52,028 bases of DNA from Bacillota bacterium (GTDB taxonomy: Bacteria; Bacillota; UBA4882; UBA8346): contig DNPQ01000567.1 in NCBI GenBank assembly GCA_003501335.1, forward strand, positions 1 through 52,028. The letters are read 5' to 3'. Below, piece after piece: positions 8,562 through 27,690 of this stretch (positions within the stretch are counted from its first letter, which is position 1; every line of letters begins with the position of its first letter). Position numbers and translations under genes: made by a program. The notes under the pieces are model-generated. The model did no database searches and was not told the DNA's origin. It worked only from the letters and a program-made list of their open reading frames with translations.

Positions 8562-8565
8562 ACTC

Positions 8566-9626: not shown

Positions 9627-9659
9627 AATTTACCCTCTAAAAATTTGTAAATGACATAA

Positions 9660-9698
9660 AAACCCCCACCGCTTAAAAAAAACAATGGGGGAAATAAT
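9660..9698 (-). terminator. Probable terminator ending the lysis cassette
   Basis: On the minus strand there is a stem ccccca / tggggg with a 17-nt loop and a T-run, directly after the stop at 9699. Confidence 0.4.
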
Positions 9699-10352: not shown

Positions 10353-10891
10353 GATAATTTTTCCCCTTGTCTTATAAATTGACTCTTGACATCAGCATAA
10401 AAAGCATTCGGATCAAATAAATCATTTTTCGGATTCGTTTTTCCATTGCTGAAATCAATCCAACAGAATGGATCGAATGGCCGGTTCAAGGGGTCATATC
10501 TGCTATGCGGTTGCAGATAGTCAGGAGTTGGTTTAAATTTATAGCGCAGAATGATATCTACTATCAAATCCAAAACATTCTGATAAATTTCCTTTGTAAT
10601 AGGTTCACAGGTTTCAATTCCAATTGCGTCTCGATTTGCTCCGACGCAATGATAGGCTTGTTCGTTTTCTGGGATGCACCGAATGATATTCGTAGCGTCC
10701 ACAAGATAATGGGCGGATGCGAAAGTTTTACCGGCTAACGGCGGATGATTCAAACTTTCAAAATAGTCCCGGTTATTTTTTGCCGAAGCTCCCGAATTGC
10801 CCGTCCTATGGATAATAATTTTTTGCGGGCGCAATAAAAAAGCCGGCCTATTTTTGCCGACTGAAATAAGATCTTCTTTAATTGGTATCAT
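10349..10891 (-). CDS. Endolysin: N-acetylmuramoyl-L-alanine amidase (Amidase_2/PGRP, T7-lysozyme-like)
   Basis: Motifs IIIHRTGN…, ASAHYLVD and NRDAIGIETCE fit the amidase_2 fold. ATG at 10891 (MIPIKEDL) is preferred over the ORF-track TTG at 10936, which lies inside the upstream gene. Confidence 0.75.
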   Translation of the reverse strand: MIPIKEDLISVGKNRPAFLLRPQKIIIHRTGNSGASAKNNRDYFESLNHPPLAGKTFASAHYLVDATNIIRCIPENEQAYHCVGANRDAIGIETCEPITKEIYQNVLDLIVDIILRYKFKPTPDYLQPHSRYDPLNRPFDPFCWIDFSNGKTNPKNDLFDPNAFYADVKSQFIRQGEKLS

Positions 10892-10919
10892 TTTATAATT
10901 GTCCTCGCTTTCTTTGTTC

Positions 10920-11216
10920 TTATCTCTTTCCTCCAAACCACGCCCCAGCGGCAGCGGCCAATACTATTCCTCCAATAGTTCCGCCAACTTTGCTAATCCA
11001 AATCCATACCGTTTTTTGACCAGCGGAGGTGTCGTTTTCTGATTCAATACTGTCGATACGTTTATTTATTTCTGGAATAGTTTTATCTTCAAGTTTTGTA
11101 ACCCTGCTATTAGTTTTCTGCACTTGTATTAATACTTGCTCTAATATTCCATTGGTTTTACCTGATTCTTCAATTAATTTAATCGCCCAACTCGGTACCT
11201 CTTCCATTTCCATCAC
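10920..11216 (-). CDS. XhlA-like lysis-associated membrane protein
   Basis: 98 aa with an N-terminal coiled segment (VTKLEDKTIPEINKRIDSIE) and a C-terminal TM (VWIWISKVGGTIGGIVLAAAAGAWF). This architecture matches PBSX XhlA. It is the first gene of the lysis cassette. Confidence 0.5.
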   Translation of the reverse strand: MMEMEEVPSWAIKLIEESGKTNGILEQVLIQVQKTNSRVTKLEDKTIPEINKRIDSIESENDTSAGQKTVWIWISKVGGTIGGIVLAAAAGAWFGGKR

Positions 11217-11312
11217 CGACTTTCAAGGAATTGTTTTTTACGGCCCTTAACGGCTATTGAATCCATAAGTTTTGAATTTACACGCCCCCAGTCGAACAAC
11301 CTATTTACCCAT

Positions 11313-11341
11313 ATTATAGATTTGCTGTGCCGAAGTTTGAA
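11313..11341 (-). promoter_or_regulatory. Sigma-A-type promoter candidate upstream of the lysis cassette
   Basis: On the minus strand the sequence reads TTCAAA (11341-11336), a 17-nt spacer, then TATAAT (11318-11313). Confidence 0.35.
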
Positions 11342-11360
11342 AAAGCCTGAATACGAGCAT

Positions 11361-11388
11361 AAAAAAACCGCCATTGTAGGCGGCGGCC
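11361..11388 (-). terminator. Rho-independent terminator after the lipoprotein gene
   Basis: On the minus strand the sequence reads gccgcc-tacaat-ggcggt followed by tttttttat. Confidence 0.6.
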
Positions 11389-11401
11389 TTCCGAGTTAAC
11401 T

Positions 11402-11851
11402 TTAAGGATTCATTTTAGGAATATTATCTCTTTCCATATAAGCCTTTTCTTGTGGTTGCCCCTGGTCGATTCTTTCTAAAACAAGCCTCATCTTTTTTAT
11501 ATTGCTTTCAGTCGAGTATGATCCATTCATGGCCCAGGCTGTTTCTCCATCCATTTGAACAGTTTTGGTATAATCAGTTTTTTCTAAAGTTTCATTATCA
11601 TAGTTGTAATATTCTTCCCTAACCCTTAATGTACACTGAATATTACTATAGACCGGAAACGACCAAGAATATTTAATAGTTTGTGTCGGATTCATTTGTT
11701 CATCATATTGCCGTTGCTGTCTCCATTCTCCAGTTAAGAAGAAATATTGTTCCTTCACATTATCGTTGTGCTTGATTCCCCTTCCACCGATACAGCCAGA
11801 AAACAACAATGTAACAATAATTAATAAAAACATTAAATTAATTTTTTTCAT
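11402..11851 (-). CDS. Lipoprotein (moron candidate)
   Basis: 149 aa. The signal peptide has a canonical lipobox (LLFSGC). It lies between the tail fibre gene and the lysis cassette and has its own terminator. Confidence 0.65.
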   Translation of the reverse strand: MKKINLMFLLIIVTLLFSGCIGGRGIKHNDNVKEQYFFLTGEWRQQRQYDEQMNPTQTIKYSWSFPVYSNIQCTLRVREEYYNYDNETLEKTDYTKTVQMDGETAWAMNGSYSTESNIKKMRLVLERIDQGQPQEKAYMERDNIPKMNP

Positions 11852-11997
11852 ACTTCACCTTCTTACTAAAAGCGGGAAGGGTATTTAATAATGCCATTTT
11901 AAGCAACTTAAAGGGGGTTACTAAAATGAAAAAAATTCCCCTTCCCGATATTATTATAACATTATAAGATAAATAAATATAATACAAAATTCTAAAT

Positions 11998-13353
11998 TTA
12001 CCATCCTCTGTCAGCTATATACTGAACGTAACTAGCTGTTCCCCCGGTTGATAAAGCGGAAGCCGATCCATAAATCATGAGTTGAGTTCTTGTAATATTG
12101 CCTATTCTCCCAGAAGAAAACTCATTTCTAGTTCCATTACTAGCAGTCATTCCATAACATCTAACCTGAATCAGTGGCGTACCGATAGCATGTGTTGAGG
12201 TGATGGTTCCGGATGCCGTCATTACGTAAGAGGTAATTCTACCATTTATGGCATAAGTAATTATGCTATTTATACCGCTAGTACCTGTAACGCATTCTCC
12301 CACCATCAACCTAACCTTATCTTCCCATGCTGTTCCATTATATCTTTTCATTTTAAATTGACTTAAATCGAACCAATGTTGATCGATTGCTGGTGGAATA
12401 GGAGCAGTAAGAGAATAAATTGTTTCAAGTTCAGTATAACCACCTGTAATAGTATTAGTCGCTACATCTAAATCAATATAAAGTTGTAAAAATGATTTAT
12501 TAGCGGGTAAATTAGTCCATAAAGTGGTTGAGCCAGTAAAGCCAATAATGTAATTTATTTCTCCACACGTTAAATCATAACCAGCGGCTAGATTACAAAT
12601 TACCGGAGCAGTAGGAAGTCCTATTAACATTGCGGATAGACCTGACCACGAAATAAAAATAGCGCCTCCCGAACTGTTATCAACCATACCGCTTATTACA
12701 GTTTGCCTTCTTGAACCTGGTTTATTTGAAACTGAAGTTGCTTTCTTCACTGTTATTTTATCATCCTCAAATGCGGTTGCAATTAAATTATTAATTGTCT
12801 CTGTGGCGTTATTTGCCGCTTGAGTTGCATTTTGGCTCTGTTGAATTAAAGTCGCTTCCATTCCTGCTGATGTATTATCGAGATTTATCAATCCATCTCC
12901 ATTGTTGTTCCAGCCCAATATTTTTCCTGGTATTGGCGAAGGAAAACTGTAACCTTGTCCCTGCTCAGATATGCTTGCAGTAACCGAGCGGGAATTTGTT
13001 TCATCAAGTTCCTGTGCTATTGCCGTTAATTTATCTAATCCCTTTTCCATGTTCTTTGGATCAAAACTTTGAGTCGAAAGCGTTGTTCCCTGCGTTCTTC
13101 CAGTTAAACGGGCAACTGTGATTTTATATCCCGTTGGTCTTGGTTCGCCGGAAGTAGGATATTTAATCCGATTATTATCAATTTCCTTTGTTAAATTCTC
13201 GGTTATTTCTACCGTATCACCGGTTGAAATATTCGTTTCATATAATTTTATATCCGAACCATCGGTAGTGAATATTTCGAACGTATACGGCCAATAGATT
13301 GTAGTTCCGTTGGTCGTATAAACATCTTTTCGATTTGTGTTTTGAACTGTCAT
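11998..13353 (-). CDS. Tail fibre / receptor-binding protein with a T7 gp17-like N-terminal adaptor region
   Basis: 451 aa. The N-terminus (…YTTNGTTIYWPYTFEIF…IKLYETN…YKITVARLTGRTQ…DKLTAIAQELDE) resembles podoviral fibre N-domains. The C-terminal half is rich in Ser, Thr, Gly and Asn. SD ggagggg lies upstream. Confidence 0.6.
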   Translation of the reverse strand: MTVQNTNRKDVYTTNGTTIYWPYTFEIFTTDGSDIKLYETNISTGDTVEITENLTKEIDNNRIKYPTSGEPRPTGYKITVARLTGRTQGTTLSTQSFDPKNMEKGLDKLTAIAQELDETNSRSVTASISEQGQGYSFPSPIPGKILGWNNNGDGLINLDNTSAGMEATLIQQSQNATQAANNATETINNLIATAFEDDKITVKKATSVSNKPGSRRQTVISGMVDNSSGGAIFISWSGLSAMLIGLPTAPVICNLAAGYDLTCGEINYIIGFTGSTTLWTNLPANKSFLQLYIDLDVATNTITGGYTELETIYSLTAPIPPAIDQHWFDLSQFKMKRYNGTAWEDKVRLMVGECVTGTSGINSIITYAINGRITSYVMTASGTITSTHAIGTPLIQVRCYGMTASNGTRNEFSSGRIGNITRTQLMIYGSASALSTGGTASYVQYIADRGW

Positions 13354-13370
13354 TTTTACCCCTCCAATTT

Positions 13371-13396
13371 AAAAAAGGAGCCGCTTTTGCGACCCC
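13371..13396 (-). terminator. Hairpin plus T-run between the giant gene and the tail fibre gene, probably an attenuator
   Basis: On the minus strand the sequence reads ggggtcgc-aaaa-gcggctcc (8 bp including two G·U pairs), then tttttt. It lies immediately after the stop at 13397. Confidence 0.4.
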
Positions 13397-16300
13397 TTAA
13401 CGTCTATTTCCCGGTTTCGGAAATACCAGATCCCGTAAATAGAAATCCTCACCATTTACCATGGAATCATAGATATTGCCAACCGTTGTACTTATTTGTT
13501 TCGATGGATAATGGAGCCAATAACCTCCGGCCTCGAAACCAGACTTTAATAATTTCTCCGGTTTAATGTCTCCCTGGATAGTACCCGGCAACATCCCAAG
13601 GAATTGAGTTGCTTTTGCAAAGGCATCCGCTGAAGGAACTAAATCAACATCGCCCCGGCCAGTCCCAAACATCTTATCTATGGCCGGTGAAATCGCATCA
13701 CGGGCCAATACAAACGCTCCTGCTGGATACTTCAGAATCGTTGACAGCAACCATTTAACAGTGTCGTCGTCATCATCACCGCCACCACCCCACCGGCCGG
13801 ACAATAATTCAGAAACCAGTGCGGGCATGAACCACCAGTAAGCGGCGAATGATATAAGCTGACCGTATTCTCCATTCCGTTTGGCCCGTTGGAATGCCTC
13901 AATCTGGCGGTTCGCATAAACAGAAAAATAGGAATAAAATTGCGTCAATGCCTTGTACCATTCGGAACCGCGCTGGATTCCGGCCATATTTACAATATCG
14001 CCGCTTCCTTGAGTATCCCGTACAACCTGATCGGCGTATCTTATGGCCATTTCATCATTAATCTCTTTGCCGGATTTCATCTGTTGCCCTATATGCTGAT
14101 TGTATGCTTGAATCCATGAAGGCATTGTAACAGCATAGTCAAACAATCCAGTCAAGGCAAAATAAGTATCCTTAATTTCGTCATATGTTCCGCTATCAAT
14201 CATCCGTCTTGTTGCATCCCGAATATCCCGATCCCGGTTGTTCATCCGGTTTTTCATCATTTCTGATTTACCGAATACAAAATTAATTTCTTCACCTGCC
14301 TTTCCTGTCATAGCTTTATAGTAGAAATCTAATACGCCGCCCAAAGTTCTTGTCGGGCCGATCCGTTCCATGACCGGAATAATCCCGGCAAGCTGTGAAA
14401 AGGCGGTCGTAAATTTAATACCCATGTTCACGACCGATGAACCGATCCGGGCCCGTCTTAAAATATTTTCTGCGAAAGCCCACGGCCCAACGGTAGCCAT
14501 ATCCTTGTTATCCCTGGCGATACCTTGCAGCCACGGCCTAAACTGTTTGTAAACCTCATCGCTCATAGTTTCTTTTATCACTTTAGTAACCCGTCCGCTA
14601 TTTAATACCTTGTCCACATCCCGAATTCCATTACTAAATGATACCGAATGGATAACGGTAGCTAAATGATTATCAATAACCGATAAATGTAAATCTAATG
14701 GTCTACCTACTACGGCCTGGACGCGTTGCTTTTCAAATCCTCTACGGGTAGAAGGTTTCAAATAACTAAGGTTAAATAGTTCCTTAATGCTCTCTTCTTC
14801 GGCCTGCCGAAATGCCTTTTCGTTTTTACTCGGATCATAAACTACCGGGTAATAACCGCCGCGATAATCACCATATTTTGTATTGACAATGCTTGCCTCA
14901 ATCTTTATTGGCTCCACTCCGGTCCGGGTCTTTTTGTCCTGGGCGATTTGCGGCCAGTATGAATCAATGAAATCCCAGACATTTTGGACAAAGTCCCAAT
15001 CATTTTTATCCAAAACCTGATCAAAGATATCTTGAAACATATCTTCTGAAGCTAAATTTTCCTGATTCTCCGTGTCGTAGTAGGAATCAACCAGCCGCTG
15101 CCGGTTGCCTTCATTCCCCCAATTCAAGGCCATAGCCAAGACATTTTCCTTGGTGAGCCCGCGGGGAAATAAATCTTCAGTCCCTTTTATGCTTATTTTT
15201 TTTCTGGCTAATTGGCTGGTATCATTGCCATAATAGTTCCGGATAATATCGGTTAACTTTTCTCCGGCTTCCCGGCGCATTTTATATTCCTTATCCAATC
15301 CGCGGAGCATCGGGAGAACAATATAATGCCACGCTGGACCTTGATCTTTGTAACCATCCAGCGCCCTTGCAATCCATTCTACTTTTTGATGAGAAGCAAC
15401 AAATCCCCGGCCCCAATGTTTTGTCATTTCCCCCGGCGCTTTATTGGGATCATAATTTTGCGGGAACAATCTTTTATTCTGTTGCATACTTCCAACCATA
15501 TCTTCAATAATCAAATCAAGGTTTCGCTGTTGTTCATCCGTAAGCAGCTTCTTTTCATTCCGGGCGACAGTGTCAATATTTTTAATCGCATCAACCACGT
15601 CCCGGAGTTCTGAAAGGGTTAAATCCTTATATGGCTTTTGGATTGTCTCATCAGCGATAAAATCAGGAATTGCCGCCTCATCATATTCTTCCCGGGCCTT
15701 TATCCAATCAGCTAAAGGTTCTTCCTGGGTTACGGCATTTGGACCCTGCAAACCGAACCGACCAAGAATATGATCGATTTGACCCAGATGCTCTTTGGCA
15801 ATTTCCGGGCGTTTATTCTTTTGCCATTTTTCGATATATTTAAACGCCCTGTCAACCTCTTGCCGGACCTTTAGCGCCTCCATTGCAAGGGCATGATTCA
15901 GCATTCTTTGATCGGCATATTGGGCGGCAGTCCTGATATCCTTTTTAGCATATGACTGGGATTCTTTAACCGCCGCATTCCGTTCCGCTGCAAAGTATGC
16001 GGTTGCCGCCGCCGCTTCCCGGTAGTTTTTATCTGCTATCGTTGTTTTGGCGTATCTTCTTGCAGCTTCCGCCGCAATCCTGGCCCGTTGCATATTCCAC
16101 TGCTTTTTGTTTGCCTTGGCATTCTCCTGATGAATCAGATCCGTCAACATTTCCCGTTCCATGGCTAATGCACTGAGTTGTTCATCATTATGGAGTGCTC
16201 TTTCGGCCATAAATTGCAGTTCCTGGGGAGAATCCTTCAATTCCCCAAACTGGGACATATGAACCGCCAGCCGATCATTAACCTCCTCTGAAAAATTTCT

Positions 16301-19300
16301 AGCGCCCATGATATCTCTTGCCAGCTGATCGCCTGATGAATAACCAAACGCATCGGCAATTGCTTCCCACCTGGCGATACCTTCATTAGTTATTTCCCCA
16401 TTTTGAAGATACCGTGAGGCCAAATCCTTAACATCCTTTTGCATCCCGAAAGTCTGTTTAATGGCTTCCATGACTTGATAAATGGGCGACTTGGCAACTT
16501 CTTCTTCGATAATGGGCGTAACCCGGTCCCGTTCGGCTTGAAGCAGTTCTTCATGACTTGGTTTTAGCTCGTCCATTTGGGGCTTTAAAAGAGCCTCCAC
16601 TGCCATTTCGTGGGCCTTGGTTTTAAGGTCCCGAAGCTTTTCGAGAGCATCCGAAGTGGCACTTTTCTCATCGATGAAGTCCATTAAATAACCGTCCGCT
16701 GCTTCCCGTTCCTGGATTTCATCCTCGGTCGCCAGCATTCGGTCCATAACGCCCCGGACCTCATCCGACAGTTGAACATTCAAACCGGATACACTTTTGT
16801 AAATCCGAGTTAACCAACGCCGGAAGGCGGCAAAGGCTTTCCTTAGACCTTCGCTGGGCGCTTTCCCCTCCATCAAATAAGACTCAAATCCTCGGGCAAA
16901 TTGTTCCTGCTGGTCAGTTGTAAGCTTGTCCTGATCGCCCTTAATCGCTAGCCAATTCGATAGTGTCTTCCAGTCCTTCATATAGTTTTCGTCAGCCTGT
17001 CCGGACTTTACATATTGAAAGGTGTCCTCTAAAAACAAGTGCGATGATTCATGTAAAAACGAGCTGGCATCAGCTTTTGAAAACAAAGTAATAATCGATT
17101 GGTCCGGATTAATTTGAACATTGGCTCGAGCATCCTGATAATATTTATTAATGACTTTTACGGCATTGTTGTCAAAAATAACATAATTATGAGATCCTTC
17201 ACCGTCTTTTCTGCTTGTAGCATCTAAATACTTGATTCCTGGAATGTCATGAAGGTTTAAATATTTTGAGGCTTTTTCTTTGGCTTCCTCTTCAAATAAA
17301 TCTTTTTCATTGATATAATAATCAACTAATTTGGTATATAAATCCTCACCGGTCATTGAATCATAATTTTTAAAAAGAGAGGGATATTCAGAAGCAATAC
17401 TTTGGATTCCTTTTTTTACTTTATCGCTTTGATCAGTTAAAGATTTATCCCAATCCAAAAAATCTTCTTCGTTTGGTGTTAATGATACTTCAAACAATTT
17501 ACCTTTGCTTGATTCTGGTGATTTAACATTATCTTTTATAAATTTTATTAACGAATCATCGATATCATAATGCTGTTTTATATATTCTTTTGAAGTATCA
17601 ACTACTTCAGCCAAAAAAGCTCCTAAATGTCCACCTAAATCCCCATTATCGCTGTTCCTGTTCCGTTCATATGTACTAATTAATTTATTAGCTTCATCAA
17701 AATGTTTATCATAAAAATCATCAAAATACTTTTCGTAATCTGGGAAATTGTGATCTTGGCTTAGTTCCTCTCTATACCAATCGGCTATTTCCTTTTTCCC
17801 CGCAAAATACAACCCCCAACCATAAGCCTGCTGTCCTTCACCACTTCCAATATGATCGAGCATAAACTTTTCAAAGTCATGGGGTGAACCATGCCAGGCG
17901 TTAGTCTGATATAATAAAGAACCCGGCTCTTTTGATTGAGTCGGGTTTATTGATTCTGAAGATCTTCTTTCGGGATTATTCTGACGTGAGTTATTTTCCC
18001 GAATTTCCCCTCCGCCTGCAATTTCGTAATGTAATCCGGGAGGTTGGTCCCCGCGGCTCGCAGGTCGAATACCTCCGGAGATTTGTTCTCGTTTGTTGTT
18101 TTCAAGGGCTGCGTCTGCTGATCTAAGTTCTTCGCCATGTCCGACACCGAAGGTCACTCCTTTTAACTTAATTTTTCGTCCGTTATTATCTTCTACTTCG
18201 ATTATACTATTGTCTAGAGCATTTTGCAATTTCTGGGATTTCGCTTGTGCTTCTTCCAATGAATTCGATTGAAACGTAAACTCATCCCCGCCAAGACGGA
18301 ACACAGGGCCAATATCAGCTTTTTGAGTCAAATCTGAAATTGCTTTTAGAACTTCATCCCCGGCTTCGTGCCCCATAGAATCATTAATGAACTTGAAGCC
18401 ATTTAGATCAAACATCGTTTGAAACGGTAACCTCGTTTCAGGATTAGACGTGGCCATTTCATAAGCTGCCCGATTATATAATCCGGTCAAACGGTCACTA
18501 TAAACAGCCTTTACCAGTTCCTCCGGTGTCATCTCTTTTACTTTGGCTTTGAGCTGATCATCAAAATTTATCTGTTGAGGAACTTTGCTTTGGTCAAAAG
18601 AAAAACCCTGGTTTTCACCAAGGTTCTTATTTAGTCCTGATTTTTTTTTCGCCTCGGATTTATTACCTCCGAGGTTTACCATTTCGCGTACATTTCCGGT
18701 ATCCGAATCATACGTTATAATACTGTCATAGCCTTCTTTTTTAATAGCGGCAGTTAGTTTCTTTCCGACCAAGCCCTTATACTTTTGGCTTAAATCAGTT
18801 TTCCATCCGCCATGCCCAGTAGTTTTATATTCCATGATAAGAGGATTTTCAAAACTGATGTTACCATATTCATAATTAGGTAAAGCAAACCCAGGAATCG
18901 GATTATCATTGAACCCCATGTATTCTCCGGTAGGCTCGATGTCTTGCCCAAATTGTGATCCCATATAAGGTGATTTTTCAAGATTACGATAATAAGGGAT
19001 GGTTTCTCCGTTTTTAATTCTTTCGATTTGAGTCATGTCAAGGTTATTCGATGATTGATTCAAATTTCCTTCTTGTCCTAACCTGTTATTACCCATTAAT
19101 CGATCAATCTTGCCTTTTAAATCATTTATCCCTTTAATTGTGTTTTCTAGTTGAATAAACTCATTGTTTCCGGGGATATTGTCCGTATCTTCTGAATATC
19201 CTTCTTTAAGTTGTTTAATAGCCAATTCCCGCAATTCTCTTTGCGAAGGTTTACGACCATTCTTGGTATAAAAATCCCGATACCATTTAGGGTTATTGCT

Positions 19301-21658
19301 CTGCCTCCCAATCCGATTAATCACATTACCCAATGCATCAGTAATTAAAGAACCTTGTTGAACTCCTTTTCCGCCAGATTCATTCAAGTATTTAATCTGT
19401 TCATTCAGGATTTTGTTATATTGTTCCTGGATTCCTTTTTGAATCTGTTCGACGGGCTTGTTTTGAGCGGCCAGAGTTTCAATAAAAGCTCTTTCGTTAT
19501 CATTTAGTTTTCCAAGTATATCGGGGCTGACTTGATTTGGCATAAAATCAACATTATAAATCTCCGGTTGCATCATCCCCATATATAATTCGAGTGGGTT
19601 TACTTGCCGCCGGGATCCTTCGGCTACCATCCGGGAAGCAAATACCTGGGCCGAATATTTAGCCTCTCTTTCACTTCGGCCGGCAGAAACCAATTTATCT
19701 TTGATATCGTTATAAATCGATTCATAATTGGTATTCTGTATCTTAGCTTGCTTTTGTTCTTCTTCAATGGCCTTTTTAACCCGTTCTTCTTCGACTGCAG
19801 CCTGATTCAAAGTAAGACCATCTGCACTAAATTTGATATCGCCTTCGAGTTTTTTATATATCGGAGTCTTGGCGGTCTTTTCCAGCCAAGTTGCATAGGG
19901 AATAGAAAGAGGCTTCCCGGTCTGGGTAGCCTCTTGTAATTGGTCGTTGATTCCTAATTCCTTGGCAACCTCCTGAACAACCAACCCCGGGTCGGTCCCT
20001 TCCGGAGCCATCGACTGCATGAGGGCAACAAAGGGTTCAGGATCAATATAAATGTTTTCGAGTTTTCCCCCTTGGGTACTGGCTTCCACAAGAGTGCGCC
20101 AGGCTTCCGGCAATCTATCTAGATACTTAGACTTTGCGGCCATCTCGCCGGTTTTCTTATAAATATCCGCATTATCTTTGGCTTCATTAATAGCAGCGTT
20201 GGTTTCGGCGTGGGGAGTCTCTGGCTGCGCCAAATTATTTAACGCAATAACCTGACTTCGGTTCGGGGTCCTTCCAGTCTCAATAATAGCCTGCGCCATT
20301 TGGTGGGCATGACTTGAAAAAGGCAATCCCATGGCATGCATTACCGTAGTCATGGCAAAAGCGCCATAAGCGTCTGATTCCGCTTGGGGTACGCTAATAA
20401 CGCCGTTATCTCCAAAGAAAGGCATATCCGGTTGGTAAAGAGTTTTTTTGACCGCCTGAGTTAATGGGGTTGTAATAACTTCTTGGACTGTTTCTTCCGC
20501 AGTATTCTTTAAAAAATCCCATCCGGCTTTTCCAAACTCTTTGACAATATTCTTAATCCCAGCCTGTACAATTTCCTTCGAGCCGGTCATAGCGATATAG
20601 TCCCGGACAAAAGGCAGCTCCGTAACCATTTCAACACTACCGCCATATAAACCATAAGCGGCCTGTTGAGATACGCTAGCCCCCTCTTGTTTCGCTTGTT
20701 CAGCATATTGACCGACAGACTGCACGCCAAAGGGAATCATATCTTTTATTGATTTCAGTAATAAAGAAGCTTCCCCGCCTAATGTTGGAGCCTCTGCCGC
20801 CCCTCCGGTCATAGCACCCATCAGCACAGTGGGCACCATATTGACAGTTGCCGAACCACCTATATAGGCTAATTTCTTTACACCTTTCATTGCCTGGCTT
20901 TCTTGTTCGGCAGTATCCATAACGGCTTGACTTTCAGCGCTCCGTTCATTCAACCATTTAACGACACTGTTATTTGATCCAAAAATTGCTTCAATAGGCA
21001 AACGACCTAAACCATACATCCCCTGATTAAATTGGGCGGCCCCGGAATAGGCCATCTGTTTCACTGTTTCCCACCAAGAAGGTTGCCTGGAACCAATCGT
21101 TGTATTTTTATATTTATAGTCTGGCCCAATAGTAGAACCGGGATATACTTGTTTGATATTCTGAAAGTGCTGCTCTTGTGTCGCTAATTCCGGAATCAAA
21201 TCTTTTGCAGTGGCCATATTCTTGGGATCGCTCAAAAACTGTGAGAGCGTCGGATACTGTTTTGCAATGCCATCCCAATCTATGGAAGAACTCTTTTTAT
21301 TATTGAACGCCTCCGCTACCTGCTCCCGCATATCAGGATCAGTCATAAAATATTCAGCGGGAATGCTTAAATCATTGGACATCTTAACATCTTTAACCGC
21401 CTGGTCTGGCGTAGTCTGTTCAGCAACCATAGCGGATTGCCGCAAACTATTGGCAGTATCTTCACCCATATTTCTGACTTCGGGGGGAATATAATTATTG
21501 CTATCCGGTTTGATCGCAAATTCATCTAATACTTCATTAGTTTCTGCCCCGGTTAAAGGTGCCGATTTAGATGCAGTGCTGGGGCTAACATAACTATTTG
21601 TCCCAAACTCTTTATTGAATTGGTCCTGTTCATCTTCTGTTAAGGGAATACCCGGCAT
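13397..21658 (-). CDS. Giant internal-virion/ejection 'polyvalent' protein (~2750 aa) with GGDEF, ART-like and HExxH modules
   Basis: One uninterrupted ORF in the T7 gp16 position. ATG at 21658 (SD gaggtg 6 nt upstream) is preferred to the track's GTG at 21667. It contains hydrophobic segments, a GGDEF domain, a PARP-like HGS/GLYFA block, an HESSH motif and long helical regions. Confidence 0.85.
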   Translation of the reverse strand: MPGIPLTEDEQDQFNKEFGTNSYVSPSTASKSAPLTGAETNEVLDEFAIKPDSNNYIPPEVRNMGEDTANSLRQSAMVAEQTTPDQAVKDVKMSNDLSIPAEYFMTDPDMREQVAEAFNNKKSSSIDWDGIAKQYPTLSQFLSDPKNMATAKDLIPELATQEQHFQNIKQVYPGSTIGPDYKYKNTTIGSRQPSWWETVKQMAYSGAAQFNQGMYGLGRLPIEAIFGSNNSVVKWLNERSAESQAVMDTAEQESQAMKGVKKLAYIGGSATVNMVPTVLMGAMTGGAAEAPTLGGEASLLLKSIKDMIPFGVQSVGQYAEQAKQEGASVSQQAAYGLYGGSVEMVTELPFVRDYIAMTGSKEIVQAGIKNIVKEFGKAGWDFLKNTAEETVQEVITTPLTQAVKKTLYQPDMPFFGDNGVISVPQAESDAYGAFAMTTVMHAMGLPFSSHAHQMAQAIIETGRTPNRSQVIALNNLAQPETPHAETNAAINEAKDNADIYKKTGEMAAKSKYLDRLPEAWRTLVEASTQGGKLENIYIDPEPFVALMQSMAPEGTDPGLVVQEVAKELGINDQLQEATQTGKPLSIPYATWLEKTAKTPIYKKLEGDIKFSADGLTLNQAAVEEERVKKAIEEEQKQAKIQNTNYESIYNDIKDKLVSAGRSEREAKYSAQVFASRMVAEGSRRQVNPLELYMGMMQPEIYNVDFMPNQVSPDILGKLNDNERAFIETLAAQNKPVEQIQKGIQEQYNKILNEQIKYLNESGGKGVQQGSLITDALGNVINRIGRQSNNPKWYRDFYTKNGRKPSQRELRELAIKQLKEGYSEDTDNIPGNNEFIQLENTIKGINDLKGKIDRLMGNNRLGQEGNLNQSSNNLDMTQIERIKNGETIPYYRNLEKSPYMGSQFGQDIEPTGEYMGFNDNPIPGFALPNYEYGNISFENPLIMEYKTTGHGGWKTDLSQKYKGLVGKKLTAAIKKEGYDSIITYDSDTGNVREMVNLGGNKSEAKKKSGLNKNLGENQGFSFDQSKVPQQINFDDQLKAKVKEMTPEELVKAVYSDRLTGLYNRAAYEMATSNPETRLPFQTMFDLNGFKFINDSMGHEAGDEVLKAISDLTQKADIGPVFRLGGDEFTFQSNSLEEAQAKSQKLQNALDNSIIEVEDNNGRKIKLKGVTFGVGHGEELRSADAALENNKREQISGGIRPASRGDQPPGLHYEIAGGGEIRENNSRQNNPERRSSESINPTQSKEPGSLLYQTNAWHGSPHDFEKFMLDHIGSGEGQQAYGWGLYFAGKKEIADWYREELSQDHNFPDYEKYFDDFYDKHFDEANKLISTYERNRNSDNGDLGGHLGAFLAEVVDTSKEYIKQHYDIDDSLIKFIKDNVKSPESSKGKLFEVSLTPNEEDFLDWDKSLTDQSDKVKKGIQSIASEYPSLFKNYDSMTGEDLYTKLVDYYINEKDLFEEEAKEKASKYLNLHDIPGIKYLDATSRKDGEGSHNYVIFDNNAVKVINKYYQDARANVQINPDQSIITLFSKADASSFLHESSHLFLEDTFQYVKSGQADENYMKDWKTLSNWLAIKGDQDKLTTDQQEQFARGFESYLMEGKAPSEGLRKAFAAFRRWLTRIYKSVSGLNVQLSDEVRGVMDRMLATEDEIQEREAADGYLMDFIDEKSATSDALEKLRDLKTKAHEMAVEALLKPQMDELKPSHEELLQAERDRVTPIIEEEVAKSPIYQVMEAIKQTFGMQKDVKDLASRYLQNGEITNEGIARWEAIADAFGYSSGDQLARDIMGARNFSEEVNDRLAVHMSQFGELKDSPQELQFMAERALHNDEQLSALAMEREMLTDLIHQENAKANKKQWNMQRARIAAEAARRYAKTTIADKNYREAAAATAYFAAERNAAVKESQSYAKKDIRTAAQYADQRMLNHALAMEALKVRQEVDRAFKYIEKWQKNKRPEIAKEHLGQIDHILGRFGLQGPNAVTQEEPLADWIKAREEYDEAAIPDFIADETIQKPYKDLTLSELRDVVDAIKNIDTVARNEKKLLTDEQQRNLDLIIEDMVGSMQQNKRLFPQNYDPNKAPGEMTKHWGRGFVASHQKVEWIARALDGYKDQGPAWHYIVLPMLRGLDKEYKMRREAGEKLTDIIRNYYGNDTSQLARKKISIKGTEDLFPRGLTKENVLAMALNWGNEGNRQRLVDSYYDTENQENLASEDMFQDIFDQVLDKNDWDFVQNVWDFIDSYWPQIAQDKKTRTGVEPIKIEASIVNTKYGDYRGGYYPVVYDPSKNEKAFRQAEEESIKELFNLSYLKPSTRRGFEKQRVQAVVGRPLDLHLSVIDNHLATVIHSVSFSNGIRDVDKVLNSGRVTKVIKETMSDEVYKQFRPWLQGIARDNKDMATVGPWAFAENILRRARIGSSVVNMGIKFTTAFSQLAGIIPVMERIGPTRTLGGVLDFYYKAMTGKAGEEINFVFGKSEMMKNRMNNRDRDIRDATRRMIDSGTYDEIKDTYFALTGLFDYAVTMPSWIQAYNQHIGQQMKSGKEINDEMAIRYADQVVRDTQGSGDIVNMAGIQRGSEWYKALTQFYSYFSVYANRQIEAFQRAKRNGEYGQLISFAAYWWFMPALVSELLSGRWGGGGDDDDDTVKWLLSTILKYPAGAFVLARDAISPAIDKMFGTGRGDVDLVPSADAFAKATQFLGMLPGTIQGDIKPEKLLKSGFEAGGYWLHYPSKQISTTVGNIYDSMVNGEDFYLRDLVFPKPGNRR

Positions 21659-21671
21659 TCTTATCACCTCA

Positions 21672-23297
21672 TTATGGGTTATATTTCATTAAGTTACCGT
21701 TTTCGTCTCGGTAAACCCAGGCACTAAGTTTTTTCGACCATTGAGCATCCGGGGGAATATTAAACCTGTGATCTGTTTTATTGCCTCCTAATGGCCCTAA
21801 TTTCCATTTACCAGTTATGGTCTTAGTTAAAGCATCCTGTAGTATTTTGTCCTTTTCTTCCGATGTTGGGGGACGTTTATTCTTAAATTGAAAATCGCCT
21901 GCAACCCCTGAAACATAGTCCCAAAACTTAGCCTGCTGGTCACTGTCTTTAATACCACTCTTTTTCAATAATGCCGCCCCATCTGTGGCTAAATTAAATT
22001 TGTTGTAGGGTGAAGTACCGACCGTCCCCATAGAATCCATGGCCTTCCAAAATGTTTTCATATCGTCGAAACTGATCCGGCTTCCATATTCCTTAAGCAT
22101 CTCTTGTCTATTGGCAATTTTTCCGGCTTTGATTTTATCGTATAGTTCATACCAGGCTGCCGGATCCGTTTTTATCCCCTGGCCCGCTTTGGTGAGTTCC
22201 GGATAAAGCTGCTTGGCAATTGTGAGCAAACTTGTTTTTACCTGTAATTGGTCAGCGGTCTTTTGCGGCAGGGTATTAATGTATTTTACTGCCGTCAACC
22301 CGTTCCCGGCTCCTTCAACATTCTTATAATAATAATCAATTTGGGTATTAATAGTAGCCCGTTTTTCTTGTTCACGCAAATTATAGGTCGAATGATAGGT
22401 ATCCAGTAATTCTTTTTGCTTTTCCGGCGTTAAACTAAGATTTTTGATATACTTATCACCCGAGGCTAGGTTTTCGCCATATTTTTTGAGTAAATCATCT
22501 GATATTGTTGTTTGTTTGGCACCCCAGTCACCGGCATCAATTTTAGTTTTAATGGTATCGGCGACATCACCCGGCAGATAATCTTTGACTTTATCAAATA
22601 ACCCCTGGGCTCCCTTATAATCTTCCTTTTGGAACAATGATTCAAAGGCCTTTAAAGCCGCTGCGCCGGAAGACGCCTGTTGATTAAATTTAATACTATC
22701 CGGTGTATCTCCGTTATAATCCCCCGTTACCTTGACAATGGCGTTGATGTTTGCAATGGAATCTACCAACGAATACGGGTTACTTGCAGCATCTTTGATT
22801 TTCTGATTGATATTATCCTGCGTGGTTTGTTCCCGGCTGGCCTGCCCTTGCTGCGCCTCATGCCTGACTACCATATTCATATTGGAATCGTACATGCTTT
22901 TATAAAGCTGATCAAACTGGGTTTGTTGCTCTTCCCCCGGTACCATCCGGGAATATTTTTGCCGGATCTGTTCAATCTGATCTTTAAAATCTTGGGTTAC
23001 GCCGTTGGCGTTTGCTAAAGTCCGGTTCATAATTCCCACTGGACGGCCATTTTCATCAGTGTCCTGACTATATAAAACGCCATCAATTTCTTGCCGCATT
23101 TGAGTTTCGGCTTCAAGAACTTTCTGAGTATCTTTCTGTTGTTGGAGCTCCTTTGCTCGTTGTTGAAGAAGCTGACCAATATTTGAAGTCGTTTGCCCTA
23201 ATTGCTGGTTTGCTTGGGCGATATTTACACCAAAGGCATCCGGATTCGGATTAATTGGTTGGATTTGTGCTTGACGTTCATAAACAGGTACTTGCAT
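21672..23297 (-). CDS. Internal virion protein (T7 gp15 position)
   Basis: About 541 aa, Gln-rich and helical, lying between the gp14-like gene and the giant gene. ATG at 23297 with SD aaggggtga is preferred to GTG at 23306. Confidence 0.45.
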   Translation of the reverse strand: MQVPVYERQAQIQPINPNPDAFGVNIAQANQQLGQTTSNIGQLLQQRAKELQQQKDTQKVLEAETQMRQEIDGVLYSQDTDENGRPVGIMNRTLANANGVTQDFKDQIEQIRQKYSRMVPGEEQQTQFDQLYKSMYDSNMNMVVRHEAQQGQASREQTTQDNINQKIKDAASNPYSLVDSIANINAIVKVTGDYNGDTPDSIKFNQQASSGAAALKAFESLFQKEDYKGAQGLFDKVKDYLPGDVADTIKTKIDAGDWGAKQTTISDDLLKKYGENLASGDKYIKNLSLTPEKQKELLDTYHSTYNLREQEKRATINTQIDYYYKNVEGAGNGLTAVKYINTLPQKTADQLQVKTSLLTIAKQLYPELTKAGQGIKTDPAAWYELYDKIKAGKIANRQEMLKEYGSRISFDDMKTFWKAMDSMGTVGTSPYNKFNLATDGAALLKKSGIKDSDQQAKFWDYVSGVAGDFQFKNKRPPTSEEKDKILQDALTKTITGKWKLGPLGGNKTDHRFNIPPDAQWSKKLSAWVYRDENGNLMKYNP

Positions 23298-23309
23298 AAA
23301 GATCACCCC

Positions 23310-23873
23310 TTAATCGCGGTAAATTCCAGGCGCTTGATACTTCGACTTTCTTGTAATATAAGCCGTCGTTTCGTCATCATAATCATTGACACCCTTAGTA
23401 CTGCTTGTTTTCCCTTTGCTTGTCTTTGCCCATTGATTCCAGCTATCCGCCACTTGGGTTGCCGTACCCATTAAAGTATTCGCCGCATTAATCTTCGATG
23501 CAGTTCTGGCGTTCTTTCCCGCTTGTCTTGCCTGGAAAGCGTTAACATTTGCGTTATACTTAATCAACAATTCATCCAAAGAGGATTTCTCCAACGTATC
23601 ATAGGAAATATCTTCGGCAGTAGCAGAATCTAACGCCATCCCGTTCGCCGCCATAGCCGCCTGCTGTGAGGCAAGGGTCTGCTGTCCTTGTTTCTTAACT
23701 GCTTTTGCCTGTTCATCTCCTTGCTGCAATATCTGATCGGCTTGGAAATTATTCATATCCTGCTGCATCTGGCCCTGTTGCAATTGAGAATAGGCGCTAT
23801 AAAATCCACCTATCATATTGGCTGCCGACCCAATGCCCTGCAACGTTCCAGTATTTGTAAAAACGCCTCCCAT
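23310..23873 (-). CDS. Internal virion protein (T7 gp14 position), rich in Gln, Ala and Gly
   Basis: 187 aa of low-complexity sequence (GGFYSAYSQLQQGQMQQDMNNFQADQILQQG). SD taggagg lies upstream. The assignment rests on gene order. Confidence 0.45.
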   Translation of the reverse strand: MGGVFTNTGTLQGIGSAANMIGGFYSAYSQLQQGQMQQDMNNFQADQILQQGDEQAKAVKKQGQQTLASQQAAMAANGMALDSATAEDISYDTLEKSSLDELLIKYNANVNAFQARQAGKNARTASKINAANTLMGTATQVADSWNQWAKTSKGKTSSTKGVNDYDDETTAYITRKSKYQAPGIYRD

Positions 23874-23875
23874 AT

Positions 23876-24334
23876 TCAGCGCCTCCTAATTTCGAAATGA
23901 AAAAAATCAATCCCGTTAATCTTGGTCATCAAGTCAAACTTAGCGCCTAACCATTTTAACCAACGGATTGATTTGGTATAGCGGCCATCCACCCAGTTTT
24001 CTAGAACCGGGTACTCCTTTAGAAATAAATCAAGATACGGAATACAAAGTTTTTTGATGAATGATACTTTCATCCGTTCTATTTCTTCACTGCCCAGCAG
24101 CCAGACGGTTGCTGTCTGCCCAAAAAGAGATTTTGGAGCGGCCCCAAACATGGCAATTACCCTTTCGTTCAGTAACAGCGAGTATCGGAATGAAGATAAT
24201 TTAAAGGAAGTTGCCAATGCTTCTTCCGGATCCGGTGCTCCCATCGTCAATACTTCCAATTTATCAGGCTCCCGTATAGAAGGCGATAACGCTGAAGTGT
24301 CTTCGAGAGCTGCTTCTCTAATTACAATATCCAT
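23876..24334 (-). CDS. T7 gp13-position protein, possibly DUF2833/GNAT-fold-like
   Basis: 152 aa. The N-terminal IREAALEDTSAL…IREPDKLEV, mid-sequence AMFG, and C-terminal SIRWLKWLGAKF resemble the acetyltransferase-fold 'internal virion protein A' family, as far as I remember it. Confidence 0.4.
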   Translation of the reverse strand: MDIVIREAALEDTSALSPSIREPDKLEVLTMGAPDPEEALATSFKLSSFRYSLLLNERVIAMFGAAPKSLFGQTATVWLLGSEEIERMKVSFIKKLCIPYLDLFLKEYPVLENWVDGRYTKSIRWLKWLGAKFDLMTKINGIDFFHFEIRRR

Positions 24335-24346
24335 TTCTTTTCCTTT

Positions 24347-24598
24347 TTAATGTTCCTCCGGTTCCGGCCTGCAAATAAAGTCATCATTTTCGGCCAAAGT
24401 ATGCAGAGTATGTTCTTGTATAGCAGCCAAGGCTGCAGCGCTCATGAATGTATCACAATCATAAACGGTCATTGTTGACCCATCGCTTTTGACATTGCAA
24501 ATAAAAAGATAATTGTCGATATCATTGAAATTATCTTCAATCCACTTTATTAAGGCTGTTTTTGCCTCCGGATAAATCCGTTTCACGTTATTTTCCAA
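24347..24598 (-). CDS. Hypothetical virion-module protein (83 aa)
   Basis: TTG start with SD gggaggg 7 nt upstream. It is tightly packed between the tail tube B gene and the gp13-like gene. Confidence 0.5.
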   Translation of the reverse strand: MENNVKRIYPEAKTALIKWIEDNFNDIDNYLFICNVKSDGSTMTVYDCDTFMSAAALAAIQEHTLHTLAENDDFICRPEPEEH

Positions 24599-24602
24599 CT
24601 TA

Positions 24603-26582
24603 TTACCCTCCCATCGTCACATCCGGAATAATTGCCAAAATTGTCACAGGAAGCGGATCACTTTGTCTAAAACAAATTCTGCCACCTTTGGTATAACCGC
24701 CATCTGCTAATGATTCATCATATTCCCCAGAATAAAGCGGTATTGGAGTTCCACTTGGCTGGCCTGAATATTGATTGACCTCTTTCATCTTATCAAAATT
24801 GGCTCCGATGTATCCGCCTCGGCTATTTTCAAAAATAAGTGTCACATTTGATATTTTTACATTCCGGGATTGAATTGTTCCATTATTTGTTGCGAAATCG
24901 ACATTTAAAGTTTCGAAGTCGGAAACATAAGGTAATCCAATGCAAACCTTAGAAGCTTCTCTTGATAAAGTTATCTTTCCATTGGTAACCATCAATCCTT
25001 TTTCTACATAACCATCCGCTAAGACGTTAACTGTTTTGCCTTCTAAATGATTAAGCCCGGATATTTCATCTGCTGGAACTCCTTTATATTTCAGCCAACA
25101 ATCCAGGAAGGTACAATCTGCTGGGTCTGTCGATGGCAGGCGATCCGGTAATCGTTCAACATAGCGTTTACCATCACGGTTAATGATGAACCATACTTCA
25201 TCATATCCATTGCCCGGAATAGTACACACTGATTCATAAAGGCCATCGGTTTGTATCGGTGTGCAACCTAAAATCTGCTGTTCTTTCAGATAAGTCATTG
25301 CCACCATGGAACCATCATTGAGAATAATCCAAATAATATGATCCGGTTCCTGCTGATAAGCCATTTCAACAACCGTTTTCCCTTTAAATAAATGATTTGC
25401 AAATATCGATATATCATCTCCTATATAGCCATCCGATTCATAGGAATATCCGATATCTTGCACAATAGTACCCATTGGCTGAACATATACAGCCCGGTTT
25501 TTAATGACAACAGGATCGGCAAGAGAACATCCGGAATGACCATCACACCGCTGCCTTAAAGATGTTGGTTTAATAATCCCATCCGACGAACCCGGCCCTA
25601 CATGCCATTCGGAATCTGAAGTCAAAGCCATAACATCGCCAAGGTCAACCATGTTTCTAATAGCATTGACCTTCCGTGAAGTCAAATAATTTGTAATGCT
25701 ATCAGTATCTTGTAAAGTGCCATGACTAATAAAATTATTATAGTCACCGGTTGTCGACATCCAATACCCTTGTGGGTCCGATGGTGTATTTCCAAATACT
25801 AATTTATCCTGGCAAAACATAACCGATGAAGGCCATCCCCGATAACCGGACCATGCTCCTTCCGCCCAATCATCTGTCACGGTTGTAGCTGCTAATGTTG
25901 AATATACCGTGGCACTCACAACCGTACTGCTTGTTACGGCAGTTATTTTGACACAGCCATATTGATCACCGTTATTATCGATATGGGTTCCAATTCTCCA
26001 CCAAGATCCAACGTGACCCGGATCAAAAATAGCCGATGAAGCTGTTAACGTGATGTTGCCGGTTGCAGCGCTGGGGGTTATTGTAGTGCTGGTGGCGTTG
26101 GCTCTCCGGTAGGGACCATTCTTAAATTCATACAAACCAATTGACCAGTTGGTATGTCCCGATCTCGTCAGTGTCCGGGGTGCATATTTTGGATGGACTA
26201 AAAAAAGCACGTCGGCCGATTGAGTAAACTTGATAGATGATAAATCGGCTTCGACAAAAGGTGACGTTATTTCGTATGGAACATTATTTAAAAGAATCTG
26301 GCCGCCATCCATGAAAAACCGGAAATACTGATCCCCAAACTCTATTGTATATGCTTGTTCTATTGAAAACTCAAAAGGAATAATCCTTGACCTTTTTGAA
26401 TTGTCTTTTGTTGCTGCAATGAATTCAGTTCCCGGCCTATTAGAGGTACCCCCGTGGGGATGAACAATCCAATTCTTTAATGCTTTGCAAGCAGTGGCAT
26501 ATCGCTGCAAATCAGTCCGATAACTGAGAGAAGGGGATATTTCACCCCCGGTAAAAGAAGGCTGTAATAAATCCATCCCCAT
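24603..26582 (-). CDS. Tail tubular protein B / nozzle (T7 gp12-like)
   Basis: 659 aa. The N-terminus (LLQPSFTGGEISPSLSYRTDLQRYATACKALKNWIVHPHGGTSNRPGTEF) is typical of podoviral nozzle proteins. It follows the gp11-like gene. Confidence 0.6.
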   Translation of the reverse strand: MGMDLLQPSFTGGEISPSLSYRTDLQRYATACKALKNWIVHPHGGTSNRPGTEFIAATKDNSKRSRIIPFEFSIEQAYTIEFGDQYFRFFMDGGQILLNNVPYEITSPFVEADLSSIKFTQSADVLFLVHPKYAPRTLTRSGHTNWSIGLYEFKNGPYRRANATSTTITPSAATGNITLTASSAIFDPGHVGSWWRIGTHIDNNGDQYGCVKITAVTSSTVVSATVYSTLAATTVTDDWAEGAWSGYRGWPSSVMFCQDKLVFGNTPSDPQGYWMSTTGDYNNFISHGTLQDTDSITNYLTSRKVNAIRNMVDLGDVMALTSDSEWHVGPGSSDGIIKPTSLRQRCDGHSGCSLADPVVIKNRAVYVQPMGTIVQDIGYSYESDGYIGDDISIFANHLFKGKTVVEMAYQQEPDHIIWIILNDGSMVAMTYLKEQQILGCTPIQTDGLYESVCTIPGNGYDEVWFIINRDGKRYVERLPDRLPSTDPADCTFLDCWLKYKGVPADEISGLNHLEGKTVNVLADGYVEKGLMVTNGKITLSREASKVCIGLPYVSDFETLNVDFATNNGTIQSRNVKISNVTLIFENSRGGYIGANFDKMKEVNQYSGQPSGTPIPLYSGEYDESLADGGYTKGGRICFRQSDPLPVTILAIIPDVTMGG

Positions 26583-26586
26583 AGGT

Positions 26587-27684: not shown

Positions 27685-27690
27685 TACCTC

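Follow-up and report, generated by a model that had tools for sequence, protein, structure and literature searches.

The window analysed in this study is a stretch of 52,028 nucleotides from an uncultured Bacillota bacterium (contig DNPQ01000567.1, assembly GCA_003501335.1), and it contains a 42.9-kb BPP-1-like temperate podophage that is integrated at tRNA-Lys. Among the virion genes of this prophage lies an open reading frame (ORF) on the minus strand (13397..21667), which has a GTG start and is unbroken over all 2756 amino acids (aa). It encodes a giant polyvalent protein, a predicted internal virion (ejection) protein in the position of T7 gp16, the internal virion protein (IVP) that is also known as IVP-D. 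The ORF matches phrog_9880 (E=5.8e-273), and an identical giant protein is present on three metagenome contigs. A previous interpretation, here referred to as the sequence-only reading, had claimed that this protein carries an apparently intact GGDEF (diguanylate cyclase) domain, and that, if the placement of the gene holds, a cyclic-dinucleotide synthase would be delivered into the cell together with the phage DNA.

The GGDEF domain was found to be real, since a hidden Markov model search and structure prediction both matched it to diguanylate cyclases. It spans aa 1056-1194 (18086..18502, minus strand) and matches Pfam family PF00990 with an E-value of 3.8e-15 and a score of 56.4 bits, as compared to a gathering cutoff of 23.8 bits, over profile positions 2-157 of 161. 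When the sequences of the PDB were searched with phmmer, 45 GGDEF proteins were retrieved at E-values of 1e-3 or less, the best of these being 6.7e-11. An AlphaFold2 (AF2) model of aa 1030-1216 was obtained with a mean predicted local distance difference test (pLDDT) value of 88.4 and a predicted template modelling (pTM) score of 0.81. Each of the top 50 PDB matches of this model in Foldseek was the structure of a GGDEF domain, in nearly every case from a diguanylate cyclase, and PleD, WspR, DgcZ, DosC, TM1788 and SiaD were among the matches. The best match was 3ign, with an E-value of 2.6e-9 and a target-normalised TM score of 0.74. Such agreement goes well past what would be expected by chance. 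The coordinates given in the sequence-only reading are exact, as nucleotides 18086-18496 correspond to aa 1058-1194 and nucleotides 18278-18292 to the GGDEF motif at aa 1126-1130, and all the sequence blocks that it quoted were retrieved, namely DRLTGLYNR (1058-1066), FDLNGFKFINDSMGHEAGD (1086-1104), QKAD (1115-1118), RLGGDEF (1124-1130) and VTFGVGHG (1171-1178).

In an alignment of 40 GGDEF sequences, 14 columns are invariant and 11 near-invariant, and the domain retains the residues of all of them. To assign individual residues, the domain was mapped onto PleD. The metal ligand D327 of PleD corresponds to D1087, the conserved Lys K332 to K1092, and the two guanine contacts N335 and D344 to N1095 and D1104, respectively. 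The Arg that precedes the motif (R366 in PleD) is R1124, and the GGEEF motif of PleD is represented by GGDEF at aa 1126-1130 (18278..18292, minus strand). With regard to the phosphate contacts, K442 of PleD is matched by K1192, whereas the position of R446 is taken by I1196 and is therefore not conserved. An Arg directly follows the conserved Lys (K1192-R1193), and a basic tail then follows the domain. Accordingly, the metal-binding Asp and the GTP-contacting Asn/Asp pair are indeed conserved, as had been claimed. The same applies to the view that the specificity position holds an Asp instead of the Ser of Hypr enzymes, and a Hypr-type specificity for cyclic GMP-AMP (cGAMP) was rejected because the residue in question, D1104, is an Asp. 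The inhibitory RxxD site, or I-site, is absent. Compared with PleD, the helix that precedes the motif (TQKADIGPVFRLGGDEF) is shorter by two residues. Upstream of GGDEF, QKAD is found with an altered spacing, and no RxxD is present there. A role as receptor for cyclic di-GMP (c-di-GMP) via the I-site was also rejected for this reason. Judged by its sequence and predicted fold, the domain is thus supported as an intact and catalytically plausible GGDEF domain that lacks an I-site.

The region that this GGDEF domain shares with other giant proteins is somewhat larger than the domain itself. The full cassette, the limits of which were set by the reach of similarity to the GGDEF domains of other giant proteins (P0068 and P0069) and of 148 representative relatives, comprises aa 1027-1218 (18014..18589, minus strand) and consists of N-terminal helices (MTPEEL), the catalytic domain and the clade-specific basic tail with the pattern GxRxxxRGxxP. 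A search with this 192-aa cassette against 1.84 billion representative proteins yielded 1,673 matches at E-values of 1e-10 or less. Of the best 148 matches, 115 are at least 1000 aa and 66 at least 2000 aa long, with a median length of 1770 aa. The nearest relatives are therefore mostly GGDEF domains in giant proteins rather than ordinary bacterial cyclases, which shows that the GGDEF domain is a recurrent cargo and not a one-off. The scaffolds that carry it are very different. Only 4 of the best 148 (P0204, P0206, P0238 and P0318) share the IVP-D-like C-terminal module of the giant protein, and P0206 also has an LPD22 domain. The proteins P0068 and P0069 are 35% identical to the cassette over aa 1027-1218; the gene of the first follows the structural genes on a phage contig that encodes an adaptor of the SU10 type, and the second combines inorganic pyrophosphatase (InPase), GGDEF and SNF2 helicase domains in one protein. 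In P0211, an InPase domain (aa 784-913) is located directly N-terminal to the GGDEF domain (aa 1029-1161), and this protein has a MuF_C domain as well. The InPase domains of these giants belong to PF18823. InPase and GGDEF would make a plausible functional pair, as a pyrophosphate (PPi) hydrolase would pull a PPi-releasing cyclase forward.

Conservation was assessed over 149 sequences, i.e. the GGDEF domain of the giant protein and its 148 nearest representative relatives. The metal-binding Asp and the guanine-binding Asn are present in all 149 of them. The guanine-binding Asp is found in 140/149, with a Ser at this position in a single sequence (1/149), and the G-D-E of the motif is retained in 148/149. 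The first Gly of the motif is kept in 55/149 (GGDEF) and replaced by Ser in 79/149 (SGDEF), in which case the residue before the motif is usually a His instead of an Arg. An RxxD inhibitory site occurs in 6/149. In most members of the clade, including the giant protein studied here, the domain is followed by the basic tail GxRxxxRGxxP, which in the clade replaces the usual K-x-x-x-R phosphate contact region. The retention of the catalytic residues together with the rarity of RxxD argues, at the level of the sequences compared, that catalysis is under selection and that these enzymes are free of feedback.

These counts also bear on the possibility that the domain is not a cyclase in vivo but binds GTP or has a structural role within the core protein, or that it never becomes cytoplasmic. 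Many bacterial GGDEF domains are non-catalytic, and the missing equivalent of R446 would fit with such a role, as would the facts that dimerisation of the domain is only presumed and that its topology after ejection is uncertain. However, where GGDEF domains have become non-catalytic, it is usually the GG[DE]EF motif or the metal ligands that have been lost, whereas these are kept in 148-149 of the 149 sequences across very different scaffolds. Moreover, there is no I-site that could serve in a c-di-GMP receptor role, and the association with InPase fits real turnover. We therefore regard a non-catalytic or never cytoplasmic domain as highly doubtful.

The remainder of the giant protein shows the mixed composition that is typical of polyvalent proteins. 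The N-terminal module of aa 1-~856 (19100..21667, minus strand) is conserved and common to the giants of sister prophages, as judged by blastp comparisons in which P0002-P0005 displayed 57-82% identity over ~1-730/890. It includes an LPD22 domain at aa 76-174 (21146..21442, minus strand), which matches PF18834 with an E-value of 1e-9 (1.6e-11 when the fragment was used as query). LPD22 is a domain that marks polyvalent proteins. The region of aa ~857-1030 (18581-19117 of the window), which lies directly before the GGDEF domain, had no match in Pfam or the PDB, and a blastp comparison showed that it is unlike the InPase of P0211 and P0069.

Downstream of the cassette, aa ~1246-1525 (17093..17932, minus strand) form an ART-PolyVal-like ADP-ribosyltransferase (ART) region with an insert. 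Its match to PF18760 is sub-threshold (E=4.4e-4) because of this long insert of low GC content. Nevertheless, the three motifs of the family are kept (WHGSPH at 1258, GWGLYFA at 1283 and NYVIFD at 1494), and the region aligns with PF18760-annotated regions of many giants in phmmer searches and alignments, the consensus motifs being HG[ST]PH, GWGLYFA and N[YF]VIFD. A comparison of the ART-like region with the PDB by sequence gave no match. The GC content is 0.29-0.35 here as compared to 0.44-0.50 in the flanks, which suggests that the ART-like region may have been acquired separately.

The conserved C module opens with a region of aa ~1515-1650 (16718..17125, minus strand) that contains the motif HESSH (H1539-H1543) and, further downstream, E1588. 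The H, E and H of the motif and the Glu 45 residues downstream are invariant in 19 homologues, and the motif itself is found in nearly all homologues that were aligned. No Pfam family was assigned to this HExxH region, and its AF2 model (pLDDT 78) had no significant PDB neighbour in Foldseek. Since neither Pfam nor Foldseek confirms a zincin fold, we retain the region as a motif alone; it is possibly a zincin-like processing peptidase. Such peptidases (MPTases) are the commonest, though not an obligatory, hub domain of polyvalent proteins and likely process them (Iyer, Burroughs, Anand, de Souza & Aravind 2017, J Bacteriol, PMC5512222). The IVP-D-like C-terminal module proper comprises aa ~1650-2756 (13400..16717, minus strand), was recognised as Bbp10-like by tblastn and includes one hydrophobic segment (aa 2604-2622), which was detected in a hydropathy scan. 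Pfam scans of the whole giant and of 300-aa pieces returned nothing beyond LPD22, GGDEF and the sub-threshold ART. Altogether, several unrelated domains (LPD22, GGDEF and ART-PolyVal-like) are united in one giant protein, the gene of which is located among the virion genes of a prophage with an integrase and att repeats, as is characteristic of polyvalent proteins. An internal promoter or terminator for separate expression of the GGDEF domain was considered and dismissed, as such sites are no commoner here than in shuffled sequence.

A comparison with the sister prophages demonstrates, as far as sequence alignments can do so, that the GGDEF domain occupies a swappable cargo slot. P0003 aligns with the giant over aa 1-856 and again over aa 1202-2749, and between these two parts a Zeta toxin (aa 943-1091 of P0003) takes the place of the GGDEF domain. 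In P0002, the slot is filled with LPD3, LPD23 and a putative metallopeptidase, and in P0004 with LPD3. The P0003 gene is itself part of an ejection-protein cluster, with a T7_gp14 domain encoded upstream.

The sequence-only reading had placed the gene at the position of T7 gp16, and this placement holds because of the gene order and the homology to Bbp10. As annotated with PHROG and Pfam, the series of genes on the minus strand starts with the small and the large terminase and the portal. A Tad1-like ORF, protease/scaffold, a major capsid protein of the GP7 type and the Bbp16 cement protein come next, and then the tubular tail proteins A and B, the pair of small internal virion proteins, the protein of 544 aa, the giant and the tail fibre. 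This layout is that of T7 gp8-gp17 and corresponds gene for gene to bbp17-bbp9 of Bordetella phage BPP-1. The tubular tail proteins B and A (24603..27180, minus strand) match phrog_376 (E=1e-214) and phrog_394 (E=1e-52), and the two small gp13/gp14-like internal virion proteins (23310..24334, minus strand) match phrog_418 (E=7e-21) and phrog_308 (E=3e-32), with a weak additional match to Phage_T7_Gp13. The 544-aa protein in the gp15 position (21672..23306, minus strand) has a weak N-terminal match to the PHROG 'endolysin' (phrog_1044, E=1e-6) and is syntenic with BPP-1 bbp11, a transglycosylase. On the other side of the giant gene lies a tail fibre or spike gene (11998..13353, minus strand) encoding a T7 gp17-like N-terminal adaptor, which is matched by weak tail-protein PHROGs over aa 1-122 (best E=1.6e-5).

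Over its C-terminal ~1200 aa, the giant is a homologue of Bbp10 of BPP-1 (E=2e-95 over aa 1404-2732 in tblastn). The C module is also homologous, at ~28% identity and with E-values down to 5e-126, to the corresponding giants of podophages of Cobetia, Caulobacter, Xanthomonas (CP2-like), Pseudomonas (AF) and Vibrio. Bbp10 is listed as a homologue of T7 IVP-D (gp16) in Table 2 of Hardies et al. 2016 (PMC4819975). According to the same authors, IVPs host 'domains destined for the cytoplasm', and the IVP-D homologues include the N4 virion RNA polymerase (gp50) and gp60 of Pseudomonas phage H66, which carries a methylase (PMC4819975). In addition, a 2026 preprint on the CP2-like Xanthomonas phage PhiXacm4-11 takes gp35, a syntenic protein of 2300 aa, to be a candidate for a core protein, as judged by synteny.

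Taking these findings together, we consider it reasonably probable that the GGDEF domain is an exchangeable cargo of a gp16/IVP-D-type polyvalent ejection protein, which is injected and makes c-di-GMP. This estimate leaves aside which host function changes. The giant would be made late in infection and a few copies would be packed into the internal core of the capsid, to be ejected at infection ahead of or together with the DNA. The N-terminal half, with LPD22, the uncharacterised domain, GGDEF and the ART-like region, would then reach the cytoplasm, where the GGDEF domain would condense two GTP molecules into 3',3'-c-di-GMP. This requires two GGDEF domains, which might be paired via an oligomeric ejectosome or via the helices that immediately precede the domain. 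In the absence of the RxxD feedback site, the product would not limit its own synthesis. As a consequence, host c-di-GMP would rise within minutes, before the phage genes are expressed, and c-di-GMP-controlled functions would change. Whether these would be motility, pili, surface structures or the exclusion of other phages is a matter of guesswork. The ART-like domain would act as a partner that is delivered together with the constitutive cyclase, and release of the cargo might be brought about by the HExxH domain.

Several points weigh against this scheme. The link to T7 gp16 is indirect, as it runs via Bbp10 and the literature. The equivalent of PleD R446 is an Ile here and a Glu in most of the clade, which casts some doubt on GTP binding or on the product. 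The GGDEF domain must dimerise, and the dimerisation element is only presumed. In addition, the few molecules per virion make the reachable level of c-di-GMP uncertain, and the topology after ejection leaves it uncertain which half would enter the cytoplasm. The host is uncultured and its c-di-GMP circuitry uncharacterised, and no proteomic, enzymatic or infection work on the giant or its GGDEF-bearing relatives was found in the literature.

The small number of molecules in a capsid also leads to a different view, in which the cyclase acts mainly in the producing cell, where the giant would be made in many copies, late in infection or following induction, and its c-di-GMP would change the surface, aggregation or lysis, and in which the copy in the virion is incidental. 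The gene is part of a late structural operon. For T7 gp16, the producing cell holds far more molecules than fit in the capsid, and the same consideration would apply to the giant. The absence of an I-site would permit unrestricted synthesis in the producer, and a stand-alone GGDEF protein of 156 aa that is expressed in the cell is known from Yuavirus, where its gene lies beside klcA. However, a soluble late protein would suffice for such a purpose without any fusion, whereas the fusion to a giant scaffold recurs, 115 of the best 148 relatives having at least 1000 aa, and cargos of the Zeta toxin, ART and LPD types are found in the same slot. This recurrent fusion and the variety of cargos in the slot make delivery the simpler explanation, and we consider an action mainly in the producing cell unlikely.

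Another view is raised by a neighbouring gene. Between the portal and scaffold genes lies an ORF of 171 aa (30243-30758, minus strand) with a C-terminal domain like that of Thoeris anti-defence 1 (Tad1), which matches PDB entry 8kbb over aa 102-170 (E=2e-12) and has the precomputed annotation PF24729 Acb2_Tad1_hairpin; no Acb2/Tad1 hairpin match was obtained for this ORF with the local copy of Pfam. The presence in one phage of a Tad1-type sponge domain for cyclic nucleotides or glycocyclic ADP-ribose (gcADPR) and of a GGDEF domain is suggestive, on the strength of these matches, of a counter-defence function. The cyclic nucleotide, c-di-GMP or another product, would then compete with, mimic or replace immune second messengers, and the enzyme would not serve to regulate the lifestyle of the host. 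In a variant of this idea, the product would silence a guard system that surveys decoy nucleotides of its own, at a time when immune signals are being removed by the Tad1-like sponge. Iyer et al. (PMC5512222) have proposed that host responses based on nucleotides are interfered with, and Tad1 alleles trigger the Panoptes guard system, the authors of which expect a phage counter-measure. The divergent phosphate-contact region and the basic tail of the clade would also allow an unusual product. On the other hand, the guanine-specific Asn and Asp are near-universal, which predicts ordinary 3',3'-c-di-GMP. The decoys described for Panoptes, 2',3'-c-di-AMP and 3',2'-cGAMP, come from another enzyme with a palm domain. 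The Tad1-like link is moreover a co-occurrence in a single genome, and the defence systems of the host are uncharacterised. A counter-defence enzyme is therefore a very unlikely interpretation of the domain. The broader proposal that the GGDEF domains embedded in giants of phages and mobile elements, often with SGDEF and with the conserved basic C-terminal tail, form a distinct feedback-free clade that serves immune evasion instead of lifestyle control is likewise a long shot. In this proposal they would be injected together with the genome and swamp the cell with a cyclic dinucleotide, by which immune signals would be jammed, mimicked or replenished. If it were true, these domains would be the first injected 'signal-forging' anti-defence enzymes, which could for example silence guards that sense the depletion of signals by sponges like the phage's own Tad1-like protein.

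The prophage itself is delimited by a perfect 48-nt att repeat at 3183-3230 and 46115-46162 (whole prophage 3183..46162). The repeat represents the 3' part of tRNA-Lys (tRNA-Lys-CTT), and a tyrosine integrase is encoded at 44673-45998. The spacing of the att repeats is 42,932 bp, and a Logan metagenome contig of 42,944 bp (SRR6486290) bears the identical giant. This suggests that an excised or virion genome was assembled from the metagenome and, as the repeat spacing is close to the size of the contig, that the phage is probably active. A megablast search of the ORF against 50,697 phage records gave no match, and by sequence comparison the phage appears to be one without a close cultured relative. 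The sole related prophage among 185,579 species genomes was detected in a Bacillota metagenome-assembled genome (MAG).

To the right of the att site, the host flank (46646-51701, minus strand) encodes yaaT/PSP1, holB, tmk and an Orn/Lys/Arg decarboxylase, an order that is familiar from Bacillus-type genomes. Among named relatives, HolB is closest to the proteins of 'Bacillota bacterium' MAGs, with 60% identity, and of Hydrogenispora ethanolica, with 55%. As a podophage that has an ejectosome of the T7 type and encodes an Amidase_2 lysin (10349-10936) is found here in Bacillota, the question arises whether this host lineage possesses an outer membrane. Elsewhere in the prophage, tandem 12-nt repeats (units like TCTGGTCTCGTT) were observed at 38410-38536, in several copies that form two blocks. 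They are located inside an ORF of 301 aa (37998-38903, minus strand) that adjoins a DnaB-like helicase gene and shows a weak match to a repetitive acidic protein family; the repeats probably encode a repetitive low-complexity linker.

If delivery of the cyclase is confirmed, a phage particle would carry a second-messenger synthase that alters host c-di-GMP before phage transcription. To our knowledge, T4 Alt and the N4 virion RNA polymerase are precedents for injected enzymes, and we know of none for second-messenger synthesis. The domain offers a testable set, as its catalytic residues are intact in a compact cassette of 190 aa that lacks a feedback site, and as relatives are available in many giants. 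Prophages in which this slot is occupied by Zeta toxin or LPD domains would serve as natural controls. With the Tad1-like neighbour, there is a small chance that a more surprising, anti-defence role applies.

The sequence-only reading stated that no characterised system of this kind is known. This is correct in so far as we found no experimental characterisation in the literature, where no experimental work on virion-delivered or ejection-protein GGDEF domains could be found. However, the kind as such was predicted computationally in 2017 (PMC5512222), Hardies et al. 2016 have dealt with enzyme-bearing IVPs, and the relatives are recurrent. Polyvalent proteins were defined there as multi-domain proteins that are injected with phage or plasmid DNA (PMC5512222). 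GGDEF and RelA/SpoT were named among their nucleotide-metabolising domains, and interference with host nucleotide signalling was proposed (PMC5512222). The showcase was a giant from a prophage of the firmicute Acetonema longum (WP_004096050.1) with GGDEF, MPTase and ART domains (PMC5512222). The giant described here resembles that protein, as it is encoded among prophage virion genes in a firmicute, combines GGDEF, an ART-like region and LPD with an HExxH motif of a putative MPTase type, and is predicted to be injected. In contrast to the A. longum protein, it is built on the LPD22 and IVP-D (Bbp10-like) scaffold of a BPP-1-like podophage and has no SWI2/SNF2-methylase module. In 2017, GGDEF was called 'not very widespread' among polyvalent proteins (PMC5512222), whereas 115 of the closest 148 representative clusters now have at least 1000 aa.

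With T7 gp16 and other IVP-D proteins (Bbp10, N4 gp50 and H66 gp60), the giant shares the gene position, a C module that is homologous to Bbp10 and the principle of carrying an enzyme that would be bound for the cytoplasm. It differs in that the cargo is a second-messenger synthase with an ART-like region instead of a polymerase, methylase or lytic transglycosylase, and in that the only muralytic candidate of the phage is the weak endolysin-like match in the neighbouring 544-aa protein. Compared to PleD, WspR, DgcZ, DosC and TM1788, the fold and the catalytic and guanine-binding residues are the same, with an identity to any solved cyclase of at most 31% (Foldseek). Unlike canonical cyclases, however, the domain has no sensory or regulatory partner domain, no RxxD and no R446 equivalent, has a basic C-terminal tail, and is located in the middle of a predicted virion protein of 2756 aa. 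Among phage-encoded GGDEF domains, gp43 of Pseudomonas phage MP1412 and those of other Yuavirus members, including Bordetella phage FP1, are ~31-33% identical over almost the whole cassette. Those proteins are free-standing, 156 aa long and encoded in an early/accessory cluster by klcA, and are not virion proteins. In MP1412, the GGDEF gene (JX131330.1 30982-31452) lies immediately upstream of the antirestriction gene klcA, and one Yuavirus record annotates the GGDEF gene itself as 'anti-restriction protein'.

T4 Alt is comparable as a host-modifying enzyme that is located in the capsid and injected with the DNA, which has been experimentally established for Alt (cited in PMC5512222). It differs from the giant in being a separate small myovirus protein that targets proteins and involves no second messenger. 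Against the background of these systems, the concept itself was already published as a computational prediction in 2017, and the new elements are the placement on an IVP-D scaffold in a BPP-1-like Bacillota prophage, the cargo slot and the large feedback-free set of embedded GGDEF domains. The value of the present case therefore lies in providing a test case and in defining the clade to which it belongs.

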